Shown in pieces: positions 14,284 to 19,578 of a stretch of 38,742 bases of DNA. Below the pieces are notes generated by a model. That model was given only the letters and a program-made list of their open reading frames with translations. It made no database searches and was not told the DNA's origin. Position 1 is the stretch's first letter; every line of letters starts with the position of its first letter. A program made the translations under genes and the position numbers. Location of the stretch: the sequence record KJ832078; one strand, 5' to 3'. Source of the stretch: Enterobacteria phage Sf101.

Positions 14284-14544
14284 TTAGCTGCTGTCTTTTT
14301 TATATAGCTCCTTGAGCGTATCAAAGACAATTTTCTTGACCATATCAGATTGTTGTTCTGCCATACGCTCTGCATCGTCAATGTAAACTGATGCAGAGCT
14401 TTGTTTAGCCAATGATTCTTCAATCGCTGCAATTATCTCTGAGTTCAGCGACCTGTTATTCATCTTCGCGAGCTGTTTAATTTTCGCGTGGAGTTCATGC
14501 GGAAGTCTCAAGTGAAACTGCGCCTCGTCGTATTTGCTGTACAT
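14284..14544 (-). CDS. mnt: Mnt-like ribbon-helix-helix repressor (immI-type)
   Basis: ORF-track 14284..14577; start taken at internal ATG 14544. C-terminus DAERMAEQQSDMVKKIVFDTLKELYKK closely matches P22 Mnt (DAERLADEQSELVKKMVFDTLKDLYKK) as recalled. Confidence 0.8.
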   Translation of the reverse strand: MYSKYDEAQFHLRLPHELHAKIKQLAKMNNRSLNSEIIAAIEESLAKQSSASVYIDDAERMAEQQSDMVKKIVFDTLKELYKKDSS

Positions 14545-14665
14545 CCTTGATGCCTCACCAGTTGGGTGGAATGGCATCGTAACCTACTGGATAAATACTC
14601 AATAGTACCATTTCGGTATGCAATCACATCATGGTTGCATCATATCATTCGTCTGGAGCAATGAA

Positions 14666-16408
14666 ATGTCAGATATCACCGCAAATATTGTGGTAAGCAT
14701 GCCTTCGCAACTCTTCACTATGGCGCGTTCTTTTAAAGCCGTAGCCAATGGCAAAATTTATATCGGAAAAATTGACACTGACCCGGTAAATCCTGAAAAC
14801 CAGATTCAGGTTTATGTAGAGAATGAAGACGGATCTCACGTCCCTGTTTCTCAGCCAATTGTTATCAATGCTGCCGGATATCCTGTGTACAACGGGCAGA
14901 TTGCCAAATTTGTAACTGAGCAAGGCCATTCAATGGCTGTATATGATGCGTATGGTTCGCAGCAGTTCTATTTTCAGAATGTGCTGAAGTACGATCCTGA
15001 TCAGTTAAAGCAGTTACTTCAATCAGATGAAGGAGCTGCTCACATTGGCACTAATAGCGGCAAAAATCTCCAAGAGGAGCTATTTGCAATAAAAAATCTC
15101 CAAGAGGAGCTATTTGCAATAAAAAATGAAATATATCAAGACCCGCTTACATCGTGGCCTTTCGGTGGAACATTAAAAATAAAGCAAGGGGTGTACGATA
15201 TCGCGTCACCATTAGTGCTTGATTACGGCAACTATGACGACAGACTTCCCGGTTCTCCTGGTGTTCGTGCCCATTACGAAGGCGAGAACATGGCGGAAAC
15301 CATCTTTAATTGTCAGGGTACGGATTTTAACCTCAAGATGCTAGGGGATACCGTTGGGGGGACCCAACGGGTGCATGCATACGATTATCTCGGGAATATT
15401 ACGCTTAAAGGCTCCGCAACATCTTACGGTCTTCTCGTAACCAAGAAAGCATATACCAAGTTAGAGAACATAGTATCTTACGGGCATGACAACGGCGAAG
15501 GTTTACGTACAGATTCTGTATTAACTTCTGAATTGGATAATGTGTACCTACAGTCAAATCGTATTGGGTGGCGAGTGCTTAATTCTGATGGTGGGTCAGA
15601 ACTTAATGCAATTACTGTCAACAGATTAACCGCAAGCCAGAATACACAATGGGGTATTCTTGGTGAGAGATGGGGTGCAGGGACTACCATCAATAGCCTT
15701 ACATGTGAGGGTAACGGCACGCAGGGTGACTCTGACACTGGCGGCATGATTATTAACGTGAACGGTCTTAATGGATCATGTGCTTTGGTACTTAATAACC
15801 CATATTTTGAGGCCAACGCCGGCGGTTCTGACCTTGCCATTAATAACACAGGCACACGTCCAGTAACAGTAGTTATCAACGGTGGAAACTTCCATCGGGG
15901 TAGTAGTACAGCGTACACTACCTACAACATTTTAGCTAGTTCTACTGGTGGAGGGAAATTAACAGTCATTCTCAACGGGACGACATTCCAGAGTGCTGGT
16001 AGTTACGTGCCAGACGCATCGCGGCCATACTGGCGAGAGTTAGGTAATGTTGAGTTTATAGATATAGGTTGCACGTTCATGGAGGCAACAAGTAAAGCAA
16101 TATCCATTTCCTCTGGCAGCATTCCACGTTCTGGAAGAATTAACGCCAATGGTAGTGTAGGCATCGCCCCGGGCGTGTCCTCGGTAAATGTGGTAGGTAC
16201 AGGTGTTTATGATGTAACTTTTTCTAACCCGCTCGCAGTAGCCGCGGATTGTTATGTGGTGCAGATAACGCCAATATCAGCACCCAATTCTGTGAGTTGT
16301 GATGTTACTTATATTGGCGTAGATACATTTAGGGTGACCCTGCGCGATACGCTTAGCGGAGCAGGAATCTCCAGTTCGTTTGCATTTAGCATTACCAGAC
16401 TACTATAA
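14666..16408 (+). CDS. Tailspike protein (P22 gp9-type head-binding domain + divergent receptor-binding domain)
   Basis: N-terminus [11 protein letters not shown]...[23 protein letters not shown]...NVLKYDPDQ matches the conserved P22/Sf6/HK620 head-binding domain; GGAG RBS 9 nt before ATG 14666 (the ORF-track start 14618 is probably an upstream extension); C-terminal ~450 aa do not match any tailspike I recognise. Confidence 0.9.
15062..15121 (+). repeat. Perfect 30-bp tandem duplication inside tailspike (in frame, [10 protein letters not shown] x2)
   Basis: aaaaatctccaagaggagctatttgcaata occurs twice head-to-tail (15062-15091, 15092-15121); a partial third copy (aaaaat) follows. Confidence 0.95.
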
Positions 16409-16415
16409 ATACATT

Positions 16416-16460
16416 CGCCGCCCTATTGGGACATATATGTAGGGCGGCTTATGTTTATTG
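16416..16460. terminator. Bidirectional terminator between convergent tailspike and acyltransferase genes
   Basis: 9-bp inverted repeat GCCGCCCTA / TAGGGCGGC (16417-16425 / 16440-16448) around a self-complementary CATATATG loop, flanked by T-rich tracts. Confidence 0.5.
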
Positions 16461-16461
16461 T

Positions 16462-17634
16462 TTATTGATTGTTGTTTGTTAATGTGGGTATTAATTCTTT
16501 TACTAAAGTTGTGGTTTGTTTTGTTAATTTGATGAATGGCGTCTCTATTAATTTAAAAGTTAGGCATGATGTGAACGTAATAAGAAATGCAGTTGTGCTT
16601 ACCAGTATGATAAATGTATTTTCAGTGTAATTATTAGGAATAATCCACGTCATTAGGCAATAAAGGAATATCCCATGCAGAAGGTAAACGCTGTAGGTAG
16701 TTTCTCCTAGCTTTCTGGTTATATTTAATCTTAATATTCCATACAAATCACAACCTGATGCGATAATGATAAATGTTATTCCACAAAGAATCAGTGGTAG
16801 CGGTGCGTAAGTTGTTTTGAAATACGTCATTTCAAAAATCATTATCGCAGTTATTATAATTGGTGTTACTTTTGCTTTGGCAATTCCATTGACTATCTTT
16901 GATTTATTTAGCAAAAATGCCAGGAGCCCAAAAAGAAATGATACTATGTGTATTTTACTGAAAAATAAAATGAAAACAAATAGCGATATTGCGCTAATCA
17001 TAACCATGTAAATACTGACTTTTCTTTTTATGAGCGCGGAAATTACCGGAAGAGAAAAATAAAAGAACCATTCATATACAAGTGTCCATGTTACAGCGGC
17101 ATTGATAGTAAATGAATCTTTTACGTCATTAATGTTCGGCATACCTAGTGCAGTGAATGGCAACCACTTCATTATTGACACAAAAAGCTCTTCTGTGGAT
17201 ACCTGCATTCTCCATCCAGACTTAAAACCTACAATGATAAAAATGAGACATAGGCTAACTATGAACATTGGGGTTAATCGTAGTAATCTTGATACATAAA
17301 GCCTTGTCCAGTCCTGATCTCCAGAGATAATCTTTGAAAAGAACAGATAACCAGTAATCATAAAAAAGAATGACACACCAACTTGGCCTAAATTTGCTAA
17401 CAGATTTGATGAAGGTGCTTCCCATACTCCAGATGACAAGTATCCATTCCAAATTGCTGCGTGATGAATAAGCACGAAAATTGCTAAGAACCCCCGCATT
17501 CCATCTATTTGATTATTCCTGCCGTGCTCAACAAGATTTATTGGGGAAATTTTATCAAATAACCCCACAGCTAATAACGACATCAATATCACGGATGTTA
17601 TTAATAATAAACTGTTAATTTCAATCATATGCAT
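16462..17634 (-). CDS. Acyltransferase-3 family integral membrane protein (putative O-antigen acetyltransferase)
   Basis: 390 aa, multiple hydrophobic segments; N-terminal family signature (NQIDGMRGFLAIFVLIHHAAIW); strongly AT-rich relative to the rest of the genome; sits between tailspike and attP/int like oac in Sf6 and gtrABC in P22. Confidence 0.8.
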   Translation of the reverse strand: MHMIEINSLLLITSVILMSLLAVGLFDKISPINLVEHGRNNQIDGMRGFLAIFVLIHHAAIWNGYLSSGVWEAPSSNLLANLGQVGVSFFFMITGYLFFSKIISGDQDWTRLYVSRLLRLTPMFIVSLCLIFIIVGFKSGWRMQVSTEELFVSIMKWLPFTALGMPNINDVKDSFTINAAVTWTLVYEWFFYFSLPVISALIKRKVSIYMVMISAISLFVFILFFSKIHIVSFLFGLLAFLLNKSKIVNGIAKAKVTPIIITAIMIFEMTYFKTTYAPLPLILCGITFIIIASGCDLYGILRLNITRKLGETTYSVYLLHGIFLYCLMTWIIPNNYTENTFIILVSTTAFLITFTSCLTFKLIETPFIKLTKQTTTLVKELIPTLTNNNQ

Positions 17635-18097
17635 GCTCTATTACGCAATTAAAATTTCTCCAAGTATACTGACTTTTAGTTAATGATAATATAGTTATGT
17701 GTAACTGATGAAACAAAACGGAGACACACCAAGCTTTGCACTGGATTGCAAGGCTTTGCGCTCTTCGATAGTGGTTAAGGTGGGTCACTCCACCTTTTCA
17801 TCAATCCAGTCCGCCAACCACTGCATCATTTCTCTGCGCTTAACGTAGCGGATGCCTCACTATCACATAGTGATGGTTCATTACTGCTTTGTAGAATGGA
17901 CAGAGAACTGAGGATAAAAAGATATCCCAAAACCCCAAAAGCTCATCTTTAGGATTTGCAGAAAGGTAGTCATGAACAGATACCTGCGCATGAAGACGGA
18001 ACTAGTCCAGATGTGATATTTGTGGTGATCGCATACATCATCAACGATGCTCGTTATGGTGAGTTTGATGACTACCCACTGAGGTGAAAATTGTGTT

Positions 18098-18119
18098 GTG
18101 TACCAAATTGTGTACCAAA
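18098..18119 (+). repeat. Candidate integrase arm-type sites (2 x GTGTACCAAA)
   Basis: Tandem ttGTGTACCAAAttGTGTACCAAAtt at 18098-18107 and 18110-18119. Confidence 0.45.
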
Positions 18120-18347
18120 TTAAAATCATAAACCATGAAACCCTTACTCATGGCAGTCTCAGGCTGGGTGCGCGTAATCGTGAAAGAGGAAGGTAGGTTG
18201 TTTATCTGTGCCTGTCATTGTCTAGCATTGTCCACTGTAGTTAATTAACTGTCTGTTATAACTCGAAAAACAACCCTTTTTTAACCTGAGTATGTCTACG
18301 AACGTCAAATATAGTTGTTTACTGTGCGCTGTTGTCCATGTGATATT

Positions 18348-18392
18348 GTGTACCAGATGTGTACCAAACCATTATTTTTGAGCGTACCAAAT
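18348..18392 (+). repeat. Candidate integrase arm-type sites (3 copies) just upstream of int
   Basis: GTGTACCAGA (18348-18357), GTGTACCAAA (18359-18368), GCGTACCAAA (18383-18392); int ATG at 18400. Confidence 0.45.
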
Positions 18393-18399
18393 ATTATTT

Positions 18400-19578
18400 A
18401 TGGCTATAAGCGACACAAAACTGCGTACTATTTATGGTAAACCATATTCGGGCCCACAAGAAGTGGCTGATGCCGATGGCCTCAGCGTACGAATTTCACC
18501 GAAGGGGGTCATCCAGTTCCAGTACCGCTATCGCTGGCATGGCAAGCCTAATCGACTTGGGCTTGGTCGATACCCATCCCTGTCTTTGAAGGATGCCAGA
18601 CAGATCACTGCTGACTTGCGAAAGCTCTATTTCTCAGGAACGGATCCACGCACTTATTTTGAAGAGAAGGTGGAGAACTCCATGACGGTCGCCCAGTGTC
18701 TCGACTACTGGTTCGACAACTACGTCTCTACAACTCTCAGAGAAAAGACCCAGGCACTTTACCGATCAACGGTTATGAAGCGCATGCATGACGCCTTCCC
18801 TAATCGTCCGGCATCTTCTATCACGGTTAAGCAATGGGTTGACCTGCTTACCGAAGAAGAAAGAGATAATCCACGCCGAGCAAGGCAGGTGCTAAGTCAA
18901 CTAAGATCAGCAATAAGTTGGTGCATGCGGCGTCAGTTGATAGATAGTTGCGCAATTATGAGCATCCAGCCAAGGGACTTCGGCTCACGCGCTGAGGTAG
19001 GGGATCGGGTACTGTCGTATCACGAACTGGCTAAGATTTGGCTTGCTATTGAAAGAAGCCGTGCTTCTACGTCAAATAAGCTGCTTCATCAGATGCTTAT
19101 GCTGTGGGGGGCGAGGCTCTCAGAGCTTAGGCTGGCAACAAAGACAGAATTTGACCTGCTGGACAACGTATGGACCGTACCGAAAGAGCATAGCAAGATG
19201 GGCAATGTTATCCGCCGTCCAATCTTCGAACAAATTAAGCCTTTCCTCGATAAAGCCATGACAACGTACAATGATGTTCTTTTCCCTGGAGAAGACATAA
19301 ACAAACCGATCAGCATCGCTGCAGCCAACCGATTCGTAAATAGAATAAGGGGAGGGATGGATATAGGTTACTGGCGAACACATGATTTCAGAAGAACGCT
19401 TGTTACACGTCTGTCCGAGATGAATGTCGAGCCTCATGTTACTGAGCGAATGCTCGGTCATGAACTTGGCGGGATAATGTCCGTATACAATAAACACGAC
19501 TGGATAGAGGCTCAGCGCAAAGCGTATGAGCTTCACGCTGATAAATTGTTCTGGCACATCAGGAGCATTTCTGATTAA
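18400..19578 (+). CDS. int: Tyrosine integrase
   Basis: 392 aa; C-terminal catalytic-type motifs (GARLSEL, HDFRRT, LGHE...SVYNKHD); preceded by arm-type repeats. Confidence 0.9.
   Translation: MAISDTKLRTIYGKPYSGPQEVADADGLSVRISPKGVIQFQYRYRWHGKPNRLGLGRYPSLSLKDARQITADLRKLYFSGTDPRTYFEEKVENSMTVAQCLDYWFDNYVSTTLREKTQALYRSTVMKRMHDAFPNRPASSITVKQWVDLLTEEERDNPRRARQVLSQLRSAISWCMRRQLIDSCAIMSIQPRDFGSRAEVGDRVLSYHELAKIWLAIERSRASTSNKLLHQMLMLWGARLSELRLATKTEFDLLDNVWTVPKEHSKMGNVIRRPIFEQIKPFLDKAMTTYNDVLFPGEDINKPISIAAANRFVNRIRGGMDIGYWRTHDFRRTLVTRLSEMNVEPHVTERMLGHELGGIMSVYNKHDWIEAQRKAYELHADKLFWHIRSISD

Follow-up and report, generated by a model that had tools for sequence, protein, structure and literature searches.

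We analysed a DNA window of 38,742 nucleotides (sequence record KJ832078), in which two convergent genes had been flagged as a serotype module. The pair comprises a tailspike gene at positions 14666–16408 on the plus strand, encoding 580 aa, and an acyltransferase gene at 16462–17634 on the minus strand, encoding 390 aa. In a protein look-up, both products were exact matches to published proteins of Enterobacteria phage Sf101: the tailspike to orf15 (tail spike; AII27839.1 / YP_009153089.1) and the acyltransferase to orf16 (oacB; AII27840.1). The tailspike reading frame opens further upstream, at an in-frame ATG at 14618, and the start at 14666 (MSDITAN...) yields the deposited AII27839.1 exactly. 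The GC content computed for the whole window, 0.4744, agrees with the value of 47.4% G+C published for the 38,742-bp Sf101 genome (Jakhetia et al. 2014, BMC Genomics 15:742). Nothing was found against the identification as Sf101. A megablast search of a phage collection, apparently without Sf101 itself, returned no record spanning the module, and NCBIfam gave no match for the tailspike or the acyltransferase.

The gene order runs from the tailspike through the converting gene and the attP core to the integrase. The attP core, CGTAATCGTGAAA, was found as an exact match at 18173–18185 on the plus strand and is of the phage 2851 type; both the core sequence and the sbcB integration site have been described for Sf101 (PMC4159516). 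The integrase at 18400–19578 (plus strand; Sf101 orf18) is a tyrosine integrase with Pfam Arm-DNA-bind_3 and Phage_integrase domains, and its region shows 97% nucleotide identity to phage E212 and about 94% to mEp234. A minus-strand gene at 14284–14577, immediately upstream of the tailspike, encodes an Mnt/Arc-type ribbon-helix-helix repressor (Pfam Repressor_Mnt, E 3.3e-14; Arc, E 5.7e-14). This gene, 94–99% identical in nucleotide sequence across loci L003–L013, forms the left end of a block common to E. coli and Shigella prophages.

Taken as a whole, the evidence makes us almost certain that the orf15/orf16 pair is the serotype-conversion module of a temperate P22-like Shigella flexneri phage. 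The function given in the original prediction, a tailspike accompanied by an O-antigen acyltransferase, held; its novelty did not. A 2014 publication had already covered the phage with both genes, as well as its acetylation chemistry, host range and integration site.

Head-binding domain and neck of the tailspike

The expected P22/Sf6-type head-binding N-terminus was readily recovered at residues 1–114 (14666–15007, plus strand). Pfam Head_binding (PF09008) matched residues 1–113 with full profile coverage (E 2.6e-65), and residues 1–116 were almost identical to the Sf6 gene 14 protein (7sg7_A; E 3e-67), with P22 similar. Judged by its sequence, this N-terminal domain places the protein among the tailspikes of P22-like podoviruses.

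The neck, or linker, follows at 15008–15160 (plus strand), where the structural model predicts a helix at residues 21–42 of the receptor-binding domain (RBD). Within this neck, at 15062–15127, lies an exact 30-bp tandem duplication (TRF: period 30, 2.2 copies, 100% match) that encodes a 10-residue peptide twice; P0152, a protein of S. flexneri, shares the duplication, and the 570-aa E. coli copies lack it. An Ion Torrent assembly artefact was considered as its source and rejected, because the independent P0152 has the duplication with one substitution.

Receptor-binding domain

The receptor-binding part (15161–16408, plus strand) is predicted to form a right-handed parallel beta-helix followed by a C-terminal beta-sandwich. 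The beta-helix was evident in a monomer model of the domain, so the structure prediction proposed as a check came out in favour of this fold at the level of a model. The closest solved folds were generic beta-helix depolymerases at 10–15% identity, and for this reason the chemistry and the cleavage site cannot be read from the fold.

The receptor part had been called unfamiliar, with a different O-antigen specificity implied, and neither claim survived. The domain is 79% identical to Sf11 gp13 over 98% of its length, which is the kind of close match to a known tailspike that the original prediction had itself named as evidence against its claim. Homologues of the C-terminus comprise Sf11 gp13 and about 78 other proteins; the 2014 Sf101 paper found none (Jakhetia et al. 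2014). With regard to specificity, the S. flexneri serotypes on which Sf101 plates are Y, 1a, 1b and 3b, and a serotype Y strain serves as a host for Sf11, which requires waaL and complete LPS. This is the same backbone as that used by Sf6, for which the O-antigen is that of S. flexneri X and Y.

The Sf101 tailspike and Sf11 gp13 therefore share a receptor domain and the O-antigen-dependent infection of a serotype Y host, but they differ in how they are mounted. The N-terminal adaptor of gp13, the tailspike of a siphophage, is of the PF18668 type and docks on the siphovirus distal tail protein, whereas Sf101 has the P22 head-binding domain; gp13 also lacks the 10-residue duplication of the Sf101 neck. 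Because the modelled part of gp13 in PDB 9occ consists only of N-terminal helices, residues 4–59, the receptor domain is known solely by prediction.

The Sf6 tailspike endorhamnosidase (2vbk/2vbm/4urr) resembles that of Sf101 in its head-binding N-terminus, its host O-antigen backbone and its overall beta-helix architecture. By sequence homology, however, the Sf101 receptor domain falls outside the Sf6-type endorhamnosidase family: a phmmer search of the PDB matched Sf6 gp14 at residues 1–116 only and not in its catalytic beta-helix, and structural alignment of the two receptor domains gave 12–14% identity with a TM of about 0.4. The tailspikes of Sf101 and Sf6 are thus different families reaching the same polysaccharide.

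We interpret the modelled receptor part as a domain that putatively binds and depolymerises the S. flexneri O-antigen. Alternatively, it might bind the O-antigen only, or cut it by chemistry other than that of an endorhamnosidase, for example at another linkage, and so not be a functional analogue of the Sf6 protein. The S. flexneri O-antigen contains no uronic acid, which makes a lyase unlikely. A binding-only role fits poorly with a beta-helix fold common to O-antigen and capsule depolymerases, and with several acidic residues that do not vary among 34 homologues, two of them being E234 and D275 of the RBD, which correspond to full-length E348 and D389. Two further acidic positions, D240 and E382 by full-length count, are nearly invariant. 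The Sf11 authors, moreover, regard gp13 as LPS-hydrolysing. We consider this alternative unlikely, although it retains some weight beside the depolymerase interpretation.

OacB and its O-antigen substrate

A convergent acyltransferase-3 (AT3) membrane protein had been predicted in the slot where Sf6 carries oac and P22 carries gtr genes, and both the domain content and the gene order bear this out. Pfam Acyl_transf_3 (PF01757) spans OacB residues 41–353 (E 2.5e-32), covering most of a polytopic membrane protein, as expected of an AT3-family integral-membrane O-acetyltransferase. A crude Kyte-Doolittle hydropathy scan gave eight or more segments (8 after merging), and 11 TM helices have been predicted for OacB (PMC8952252). 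All four AT3 family motifs are present (DGMRGFLAIFVLIHH, FFMITGYLFFSK, WTLVYEWFFY and YSVYLLHG), as is each of the seven residues that mutagenesis has identified as critical (R47, H58, W71, F98, R116, R119 and S146). The 90%-identity cluster of OacB comprises 904 sequences, most of which carry the label S. flexneri.

The Sf101 protein is 99% identical to SF0315 of S. flexneri 2a strain 301, from which it differs by the substitutions A231V and V266I (PMC4159516); the Sf101-specific V231 and I266 were both confirmed in our sequence. SF0315 is the same enzyme with the same 3/4-O-acetylation of rhamnose III (RhaIII), but its gene lies in an IS-flanked remnant, a transposon-like element upstream of adrA (PMC4159516), whereas the Sf101 gene lies in an intact, inducible, sbcB-integrating prophage.

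Published NMR has already identified O3/O4 of RhaIII in the S. flexneri O-antigen as the site of acetylation by OacB. For this very allele, 1H NMR and TOCSY placed O-acetyl groups on RhaIII, at O3 (about 1/4) and O4 (about 1/5), in the lysogen as well as in a strain with the cloned gene (PMC4159516), and the analysis of lysogen LPS that had been suggested as a check was thus in print. AT3 proteins act on many substrates, and distant homologues carry automated names such as 'peptidoglycan/LPS O-acetylase OafA/YrhL', which could point to a substrate other than the O-antigen, such as peptidoglycan, ECA or capsule. The published data refute this reading and leave it a negligible chance, since the acetyl groups were located on RhaIII in purified O-polysaccharide. 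The functional interchangeability of OacB with OacC of S. flexneri serotype 6, which has the same activity, likewise argues for the O-antigen as the substrate.

A homologue in our set, P0002, was 72% identical to Sf101 OacB, which fits the published OacB/OacC figure of 72%. The two enzymes differ in their carriers: OacC is encoded in a prophage remnant of SfII-like, myovirus type, whereas OacB adjoins a P22-type tailspike. Oac (OacA) of Sf6 shares with OacB the convergent slot just after the tailspike, the Pfam family, the substrate polymer and the RxxR arginine pair; it acetylates RhaI at O2 (group 6 antigen), in contrast to RhaIII at O3/O4. Orthology of OacB to Sf6 oac was considered and rejected, as a tblastn search of 50,697 phage records with the 390-aa protein yielded just 11 distant AT3 matches, all below 28% identity and none from a Shigella phage, with no Sf6 record at E<=1e-3.

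Composition, boundaries and spread of the oacB cassette

The acyltransferase gene had been described as markedly AT-rich, and horizontal acquisition had been suggested; both claims were upheld. The GC content of oacB is 0.337 (33.7%), compared with 0.474 overall, 0.448 for the tailspike gene and 0.484 for the integrase gene. Among 1173-bp sliding windows over the whole sequence, the one with the lowest GC begins at 16451, and equally low windows make up only 0.1%.

This skew might reflect only the composition of a hydrophobic membrane protein, with its Ile, Phe, Leu and Lys codons, and not horizontal acquisition; OacB is indeed very hydrophobic, and AT-rich codons are enriched in such proteins. 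However, GC3 is low as well, at 0.32 compared with 0.40 in the tailspike gene, indicating that the skew is more than an amino-acid effect. The distribution of the gene argues in the same direction. The oacB cassette is 99.6–100% identical in P22-like prophages that differ in integrase and occupy several other sites in the chromosome, while the receptor domain beside it is mosaic, at 62–94% identity among those prophages, so that sequences neighbouring a near-invariant cassette differ by 6–38%. The slot itself is variable: relatives of the Sf101 tailspike have gtrA-gtrB-gtr(type) (gtrABC) in place of oacB, and phage E212 apparently has no converting gene there. Together with the reported transposon-like setting of oacB, these observations make an explanation by composition alone very improbable and favour horizontal acquisition.

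Downstream of the tailspike, the gtrABC cassette of P22 and the yfdGHI cassette of CPS-53 sit where Sf101 has oacB; they add glucose through a three-gene pathway, whereas oacB adds acetyl through a single AT3 protein. A truncated tailspike, P0222, was observed near proA, in a remnant that is riddled with IS elements and lacks oacB.

The 53-bp spacer between the convergent genes, which is 100% identical in all oacB-carrying loci, contains a 10-bp GC-rich hairpin at 16417–16448 (dG -22.5 kcal/mol, z -3.98; 0/200 shuffles equally stable). It is probably a bidirectional intrinsic terminator; a terminator scan missed it on account of its 12-nt loop, and it was detected by folding. On the other side, the region at 17635–17845 upstream of oacB on the minus strand travels with the gene and presumably includes its promoter, and a sigma-70 scan upstream of oacB gave no promoter signal above chance (11 sites, with 12 expected). 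The block that other prophages share has its right-hand limit at position 17845, where homology to every oacB-carrying locus stops. We therefore picture oacB as an AT-rich cassette of about 1.4 kb and of foreign origin, with the terminator hairpin as one boundary and, as the other, some 200 bp of upstream sequence belonging to the cassette itself.

One host of the same module, E. coli G3/10, carries a flexneri-like O-antigen cluster with wzx and wzy of the O13/O129/O135 family, rfbBDAC and rhamnosyltransferases. Its O-antigen type was read directly from the cluster annotation, as two reviews on Symbioflor name no serotype for G3/10.

Discussion

The evidence suggests the following course of events. 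The conserved head-binding N-terminus of orf15 attaches the tailspike to the virion, and its beta-helix recognises the tri-rhamnose-GlcNAc backbone of the S. flexneri O-antigen. Host range demonstrates this recognition, and the tailspike probably cleaves the O-antigen as well. The prophage expresses oacB, and the resulting inner-membrane AT3 acetyltransferase modifies rhamnose III at O3 or O4, as NMR has shown for this allele, giving rise to group O-factor 9 and changing the serotype of the lysogen.

An acetylated lysogen is probably less susceptible to O-antigen-dependent phages. Serotype 2a strains with oacB-dependent acetylation resist Sf6, and by analogy the same may apply to Sf101. Sf101 nevertheless plates on serotypes with reported oacB (1a, 1b and Y), which argues against a complete block of Sf101 by OacB.

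We tentatively put forward a broader hypothesis, possible but doubtful at present. The Sf101/Sf11 domain may constitute a second S. flexneri O-antigen depolymerase family, unrelated to that of Sf6 in sequence and with its own cleavage site; separately, RhaIII acetylation may specifically disarm this tailspike family, and this may be why invariant oacB is kept beside the domain in many prophage backbones of S. flexneri and of E. coli O13/O129/O135. If this were true, the tailspike and oacB would be a co-selected receptor/anti-receptor pair, beyond mere neighbours in a permissive slot.

As a discovery, the locus has no importance, given that the Sf101 pair was published in 2014 and its tailspike family was given structural context in 2025. 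The additions made here are modest: the conservation of the oacB cassette across prophage sites, the flexneri-like cluster of G3/10, and the presence of gtrABC in the slot of related tailspikes. Their relevance lies in O-factor 9, the product of OacB acetylation, which bears on Shigella O-antigen vaccine design and on the host range of therapeutic phages, and in the identical oacB cassette circulating in prophages of commensal E. coli, which is a reservoir for serotype conversion.

The tailspike–acyltransferase pair corresponds to orf15 and orf16 of Sf101

The tailspike (580 aa, 14666–16408, plus strand) matched AII27839.1/YP_009153089.1 exactly, including its start (MSDITAN...), and the acyltransferase (390 aa, 16462–17634, minus strand) matched AII27840.1 exactly, both from Enterobacteria phage Sf101. 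The published Sf101 genome comprises 38,742 bp with a G+C content of 47.4% (Jakhetia et al. 2014, PMC4159516), and its RefSeq accession is NC_027398.1 (Kapi1 preprint). In the 2014 description, orf15 is the tail spike, whose N-terminus is conserved and whose C-terminus then lacked a homologue; orf16 is oacB, which shares 99% identity with SF0315 of S. flexneri 2a 301 and carries the substitutions A231V and V266I; and the 13-bp attP is identical to that of phage 2851, with integration into sbcB (PMC4159516). V231, I266 and the attP core were all located in the window. The pair is already known: the original prediction of a serotype module was right about its function, most of the checks suggested for it had already been carried out elsewhere, and the novelty it implied fell away, the two genes having been published as orf15/orf16.

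The two genes are convergent, with a Mnt/Arc repressor gene (14284–14577) upstream of the tailspike and the attP core (18173–18185) and tyrosine integrase gene int (18400–19578) downstream of the acyltransferase. The acyltransferase gene lies between the tailspike and attP/int, and so occupies, as proposed, the converting-gene slot of Sf6 oac and P22 gtrABC. Sliding-window GC calculation confirmed its AT-richness: the gene has 33.7% GC (GC3 = 0.32), whereas the tailspike stands at 44.8%, int at 48.4% and the window overall at 47.4%. Of all 1173-bp windows in the sequence, the one beginning at 16451 is lowest in GC.

The tailspike ORF opens 16 codons earlier, at an in-frame ATG at 14618; this extension (14618–14665) is probably not translated, because homologues and the deposited protein begin at 14666. 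The 53-bp spacer between tailspike and oacB folds into a strong hairpin (dG −22.5 kcal/mol, z −3.98) that is probably a bidirectional terminator. The 765-bp interval between oacB and int (17635–18399) includes the attP core and is 97% identical to phage E212 from 17706 onward. Two small minus-strand ORFs lie between oacB and int (17621–17788 and 17881–18129), one of which is presumably Sf101 orf17.

The receptor domain is closely related to the tailspike of siphophage Sf11

The P22/Sf6-type head-binding N-terminus was verified by a full-length Pfam Head_binding domain at residues 1–113 (E 2.6e-65) and by near-identity of residues 1–116 to the Sf6 tailspike N-terminus (7sg7_A). The receptor domain C-terminal to it, previously considered unfamiliar, has a close known counterpart, the outcome named beforehand as refuting the proposal: residues 133–579 matched PDB 9occ_G (E 7.6e-234), which is gp13 of the Shigella siphophage Sf11, with 79% identity over 98% of the domain. 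In Sf11, gp13 is the tailspike, present in 18 copies per virion, and its map model covers residues 4–59 only (PMC12724387); the receptor-domain fold is therefore known from prediction. Our structure model of residues 115–580, based on an input alignment of 34 sequences, reached a mean pLDDT of 86 and showed a neck helix, then a long stack of short strands and a C-terminal beta-sandwich, in agreement with the anticipated beta-helix fold. The acidic residues E348 and D389 (full-length numbering) are invariant in the receptor-domain alignment. From the predicted fold and these two residues, we infer that the tailspike would cleave O-antigen.

The expectation of a different O-antigen specificity was not upheld: the receptor domain and Sf6 represent separate sequence families that target the same O-antigen backbone despite their unlike sequences. 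Sf101 forms plaques on serotypes Y and 1a; on 1b and 3b its plating is approximately 10^5-fold less efficient (PMC4159516). The Sf11 host PE577 is of serotype Y, and deletion of waaC, waaG or waaL abolishes Sf11 infection (PMC12724387).

The receptor-domain family has approximately 78 members carrying at least four N-terminal adaptor arrangements: PF09008 (P22 head-binding), PF18668 (Sf11-type), PF18668 plus a PF03906 T7-fibre domain, or none recognised. Four homologous proteins (P0153, P0155, P0186 and P0188) combine receptor domains 77–87% identical with differing adaptors. The family clearly illustrates receptor-domain shuffling across podo- and siphovirus tails.

Within the neck helix, a 30-bp exact tandem duplication (15062–15127) causes 10 residues to occur twice, which brings the tailspike to 580 aa; the E. 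coli homologues sampled have 570 aa. An assembly artefact was rejected and the duplication taken as real, because P0152, an independent S. flexneri protein 97% identical to the tailspike, shares it with one E-to-D change.

oacB adjoins an Sf101-type tailspike in P22-like prophages

At least 24 contigs from P22-like prophages of E. coli/Shigella encode the exact OacB protein, in every case immediately downstream of an Sf101-type tailspike. These prophages adjoin ybhB-bioA, yfdC with an IntS-like integrase, or torT; none adjoins sbcB. By analogy with K-12, those next to yfdC would occupy the argW site. Identity to the window was 89–100% in the head-binding part, 62–94% in the mosaic receptor domain (100-nt windows), 93–100% in the last ~130 nt of the tailspike, 100% in the 53-bp spacer and 99.6–100% in oacB; it dropped past ~17700, and homology stopped at 17845. 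A sharp identity break at ~16280–17700 was seen against four prophages of differing backbone (L003, L008, L010 and L016). This pattern suggests either that one oacB cassette spread recently or that the receptor domain turned over through recombination.

The yfdC-adjoining prophages and the S. flexneri contig L016 (L007–L008, L010, L012–L016) carry the integrase beside oacB in the same orientation, whereas the two genes of Sf101 are divergently oriented and separated by attP. At least two integration modules of different layout have thus become linked to the conversion block.

In four E. coli/Shigella prophages (L006, L007, L012 and L014; 9227–9850 in each), a 207-aa C-terminal tailspike fragment was called beside an intact oacB; in L006, the gap beside the fragment contains an HNH gene. 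Because intact oacB adjoins a mere tailspike fragment in several prophages, the gene seems to be kept as the phage decays. Another decayed prophage, L005 (CP026810.1, 7619–11232 of the locus), contains a P22-type tailspike cut short by an IS (333 aa; cluster of 260 members); this gene and mnt adjoin a partial integrase and proA-proB. In the literature, the interval between proA and adrA, close to L005, harbours the SfII prophage and an oacB element with IS copies on its flanks, which hints that the 'transposon-like' oacB element derived from an Sf101-like phage.

After related tailspikes of the same receptor family, gtrA-gtrB-gtr(type) replaces oacB in E. coli PapM-32-1 (L004, 6168–8722) and in L018 (1257–3814), the third gene encoding a serotype-specific glucosyltransferase. 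The slot therefore takes either type of O-antigen modification cassette. Phage E212 has a different tailspike and then apparently passes straight to the Sf101-like int region, without a converting gene.

Among 5,426 complete E. coli genomes, a single one, the probiotic Symbioflor strain G3/10, contained both genes in one match (at least 80% query coverage), as prophage L020 (1870931–1882985 of the record). Its O-antigen cluster comprises rfbBDAC, wzx and wzy of the O13/O129/O135 family and rhamnosyltransferases. A relationship between O13/O129/O135 and S. flexneri O-antigens has been described (reference 22, as cited in PMC4159516), and the cluster fits the inferred receptor specificity of the tailspike. 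Frameshifts are annotated in rfbG, wzy and the neighbouring gtrA, and an IS5 is inserted in the cluster; G3/10 may be rough despite its O-antigen-modifying prophage.

OacB acetylates rhamnose III and alters a phage receptor

An Acyl_transf_3 domain (Pfam, E 2.5e-32) spans residues 41–353 of the acyltransferase. All seven OacB residues found critical by mutagenesis (R47, H58, W71, F98, R116, R119 and S146; PMC8952252) and all four AT3 motifs are present. The next relative, P0002, occurs in S. flexneri and E. coli at 72% identity; this agrees with OacC of serotype 6, for which 72% identity to OacB and functional interchangeability with it have been reported. A tblastn search of 50,697 phage records returned 11 distant matches, all below 28% identity and none from a Shigella phage; an orthologue of Sf6 Oac was accordingly rejected.

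The LPS profiling proposed as a check had already been reported: 1H NMR and TOCSY of O-polysaccharide placed acetyl groups on rhamnose III both in lysogen SFL1683 and in a 7a strain with cloned Sf101 oacB (PMC4159516). O-acetylation was partial, approximately one quarter at O3 and one fifth at O4, and the O-acetyl signals were missing in the oacB-negative parent (PMC4159516). Strains of serotypes 2a2 and 2a3, which carry oacB-dependent acetylation, are resistant to Sf6 and become sensitive again once oacB is lost (Teh et al. 2020, cited in PMC8973906); OacB acetylation therefore alters a phage receptor.
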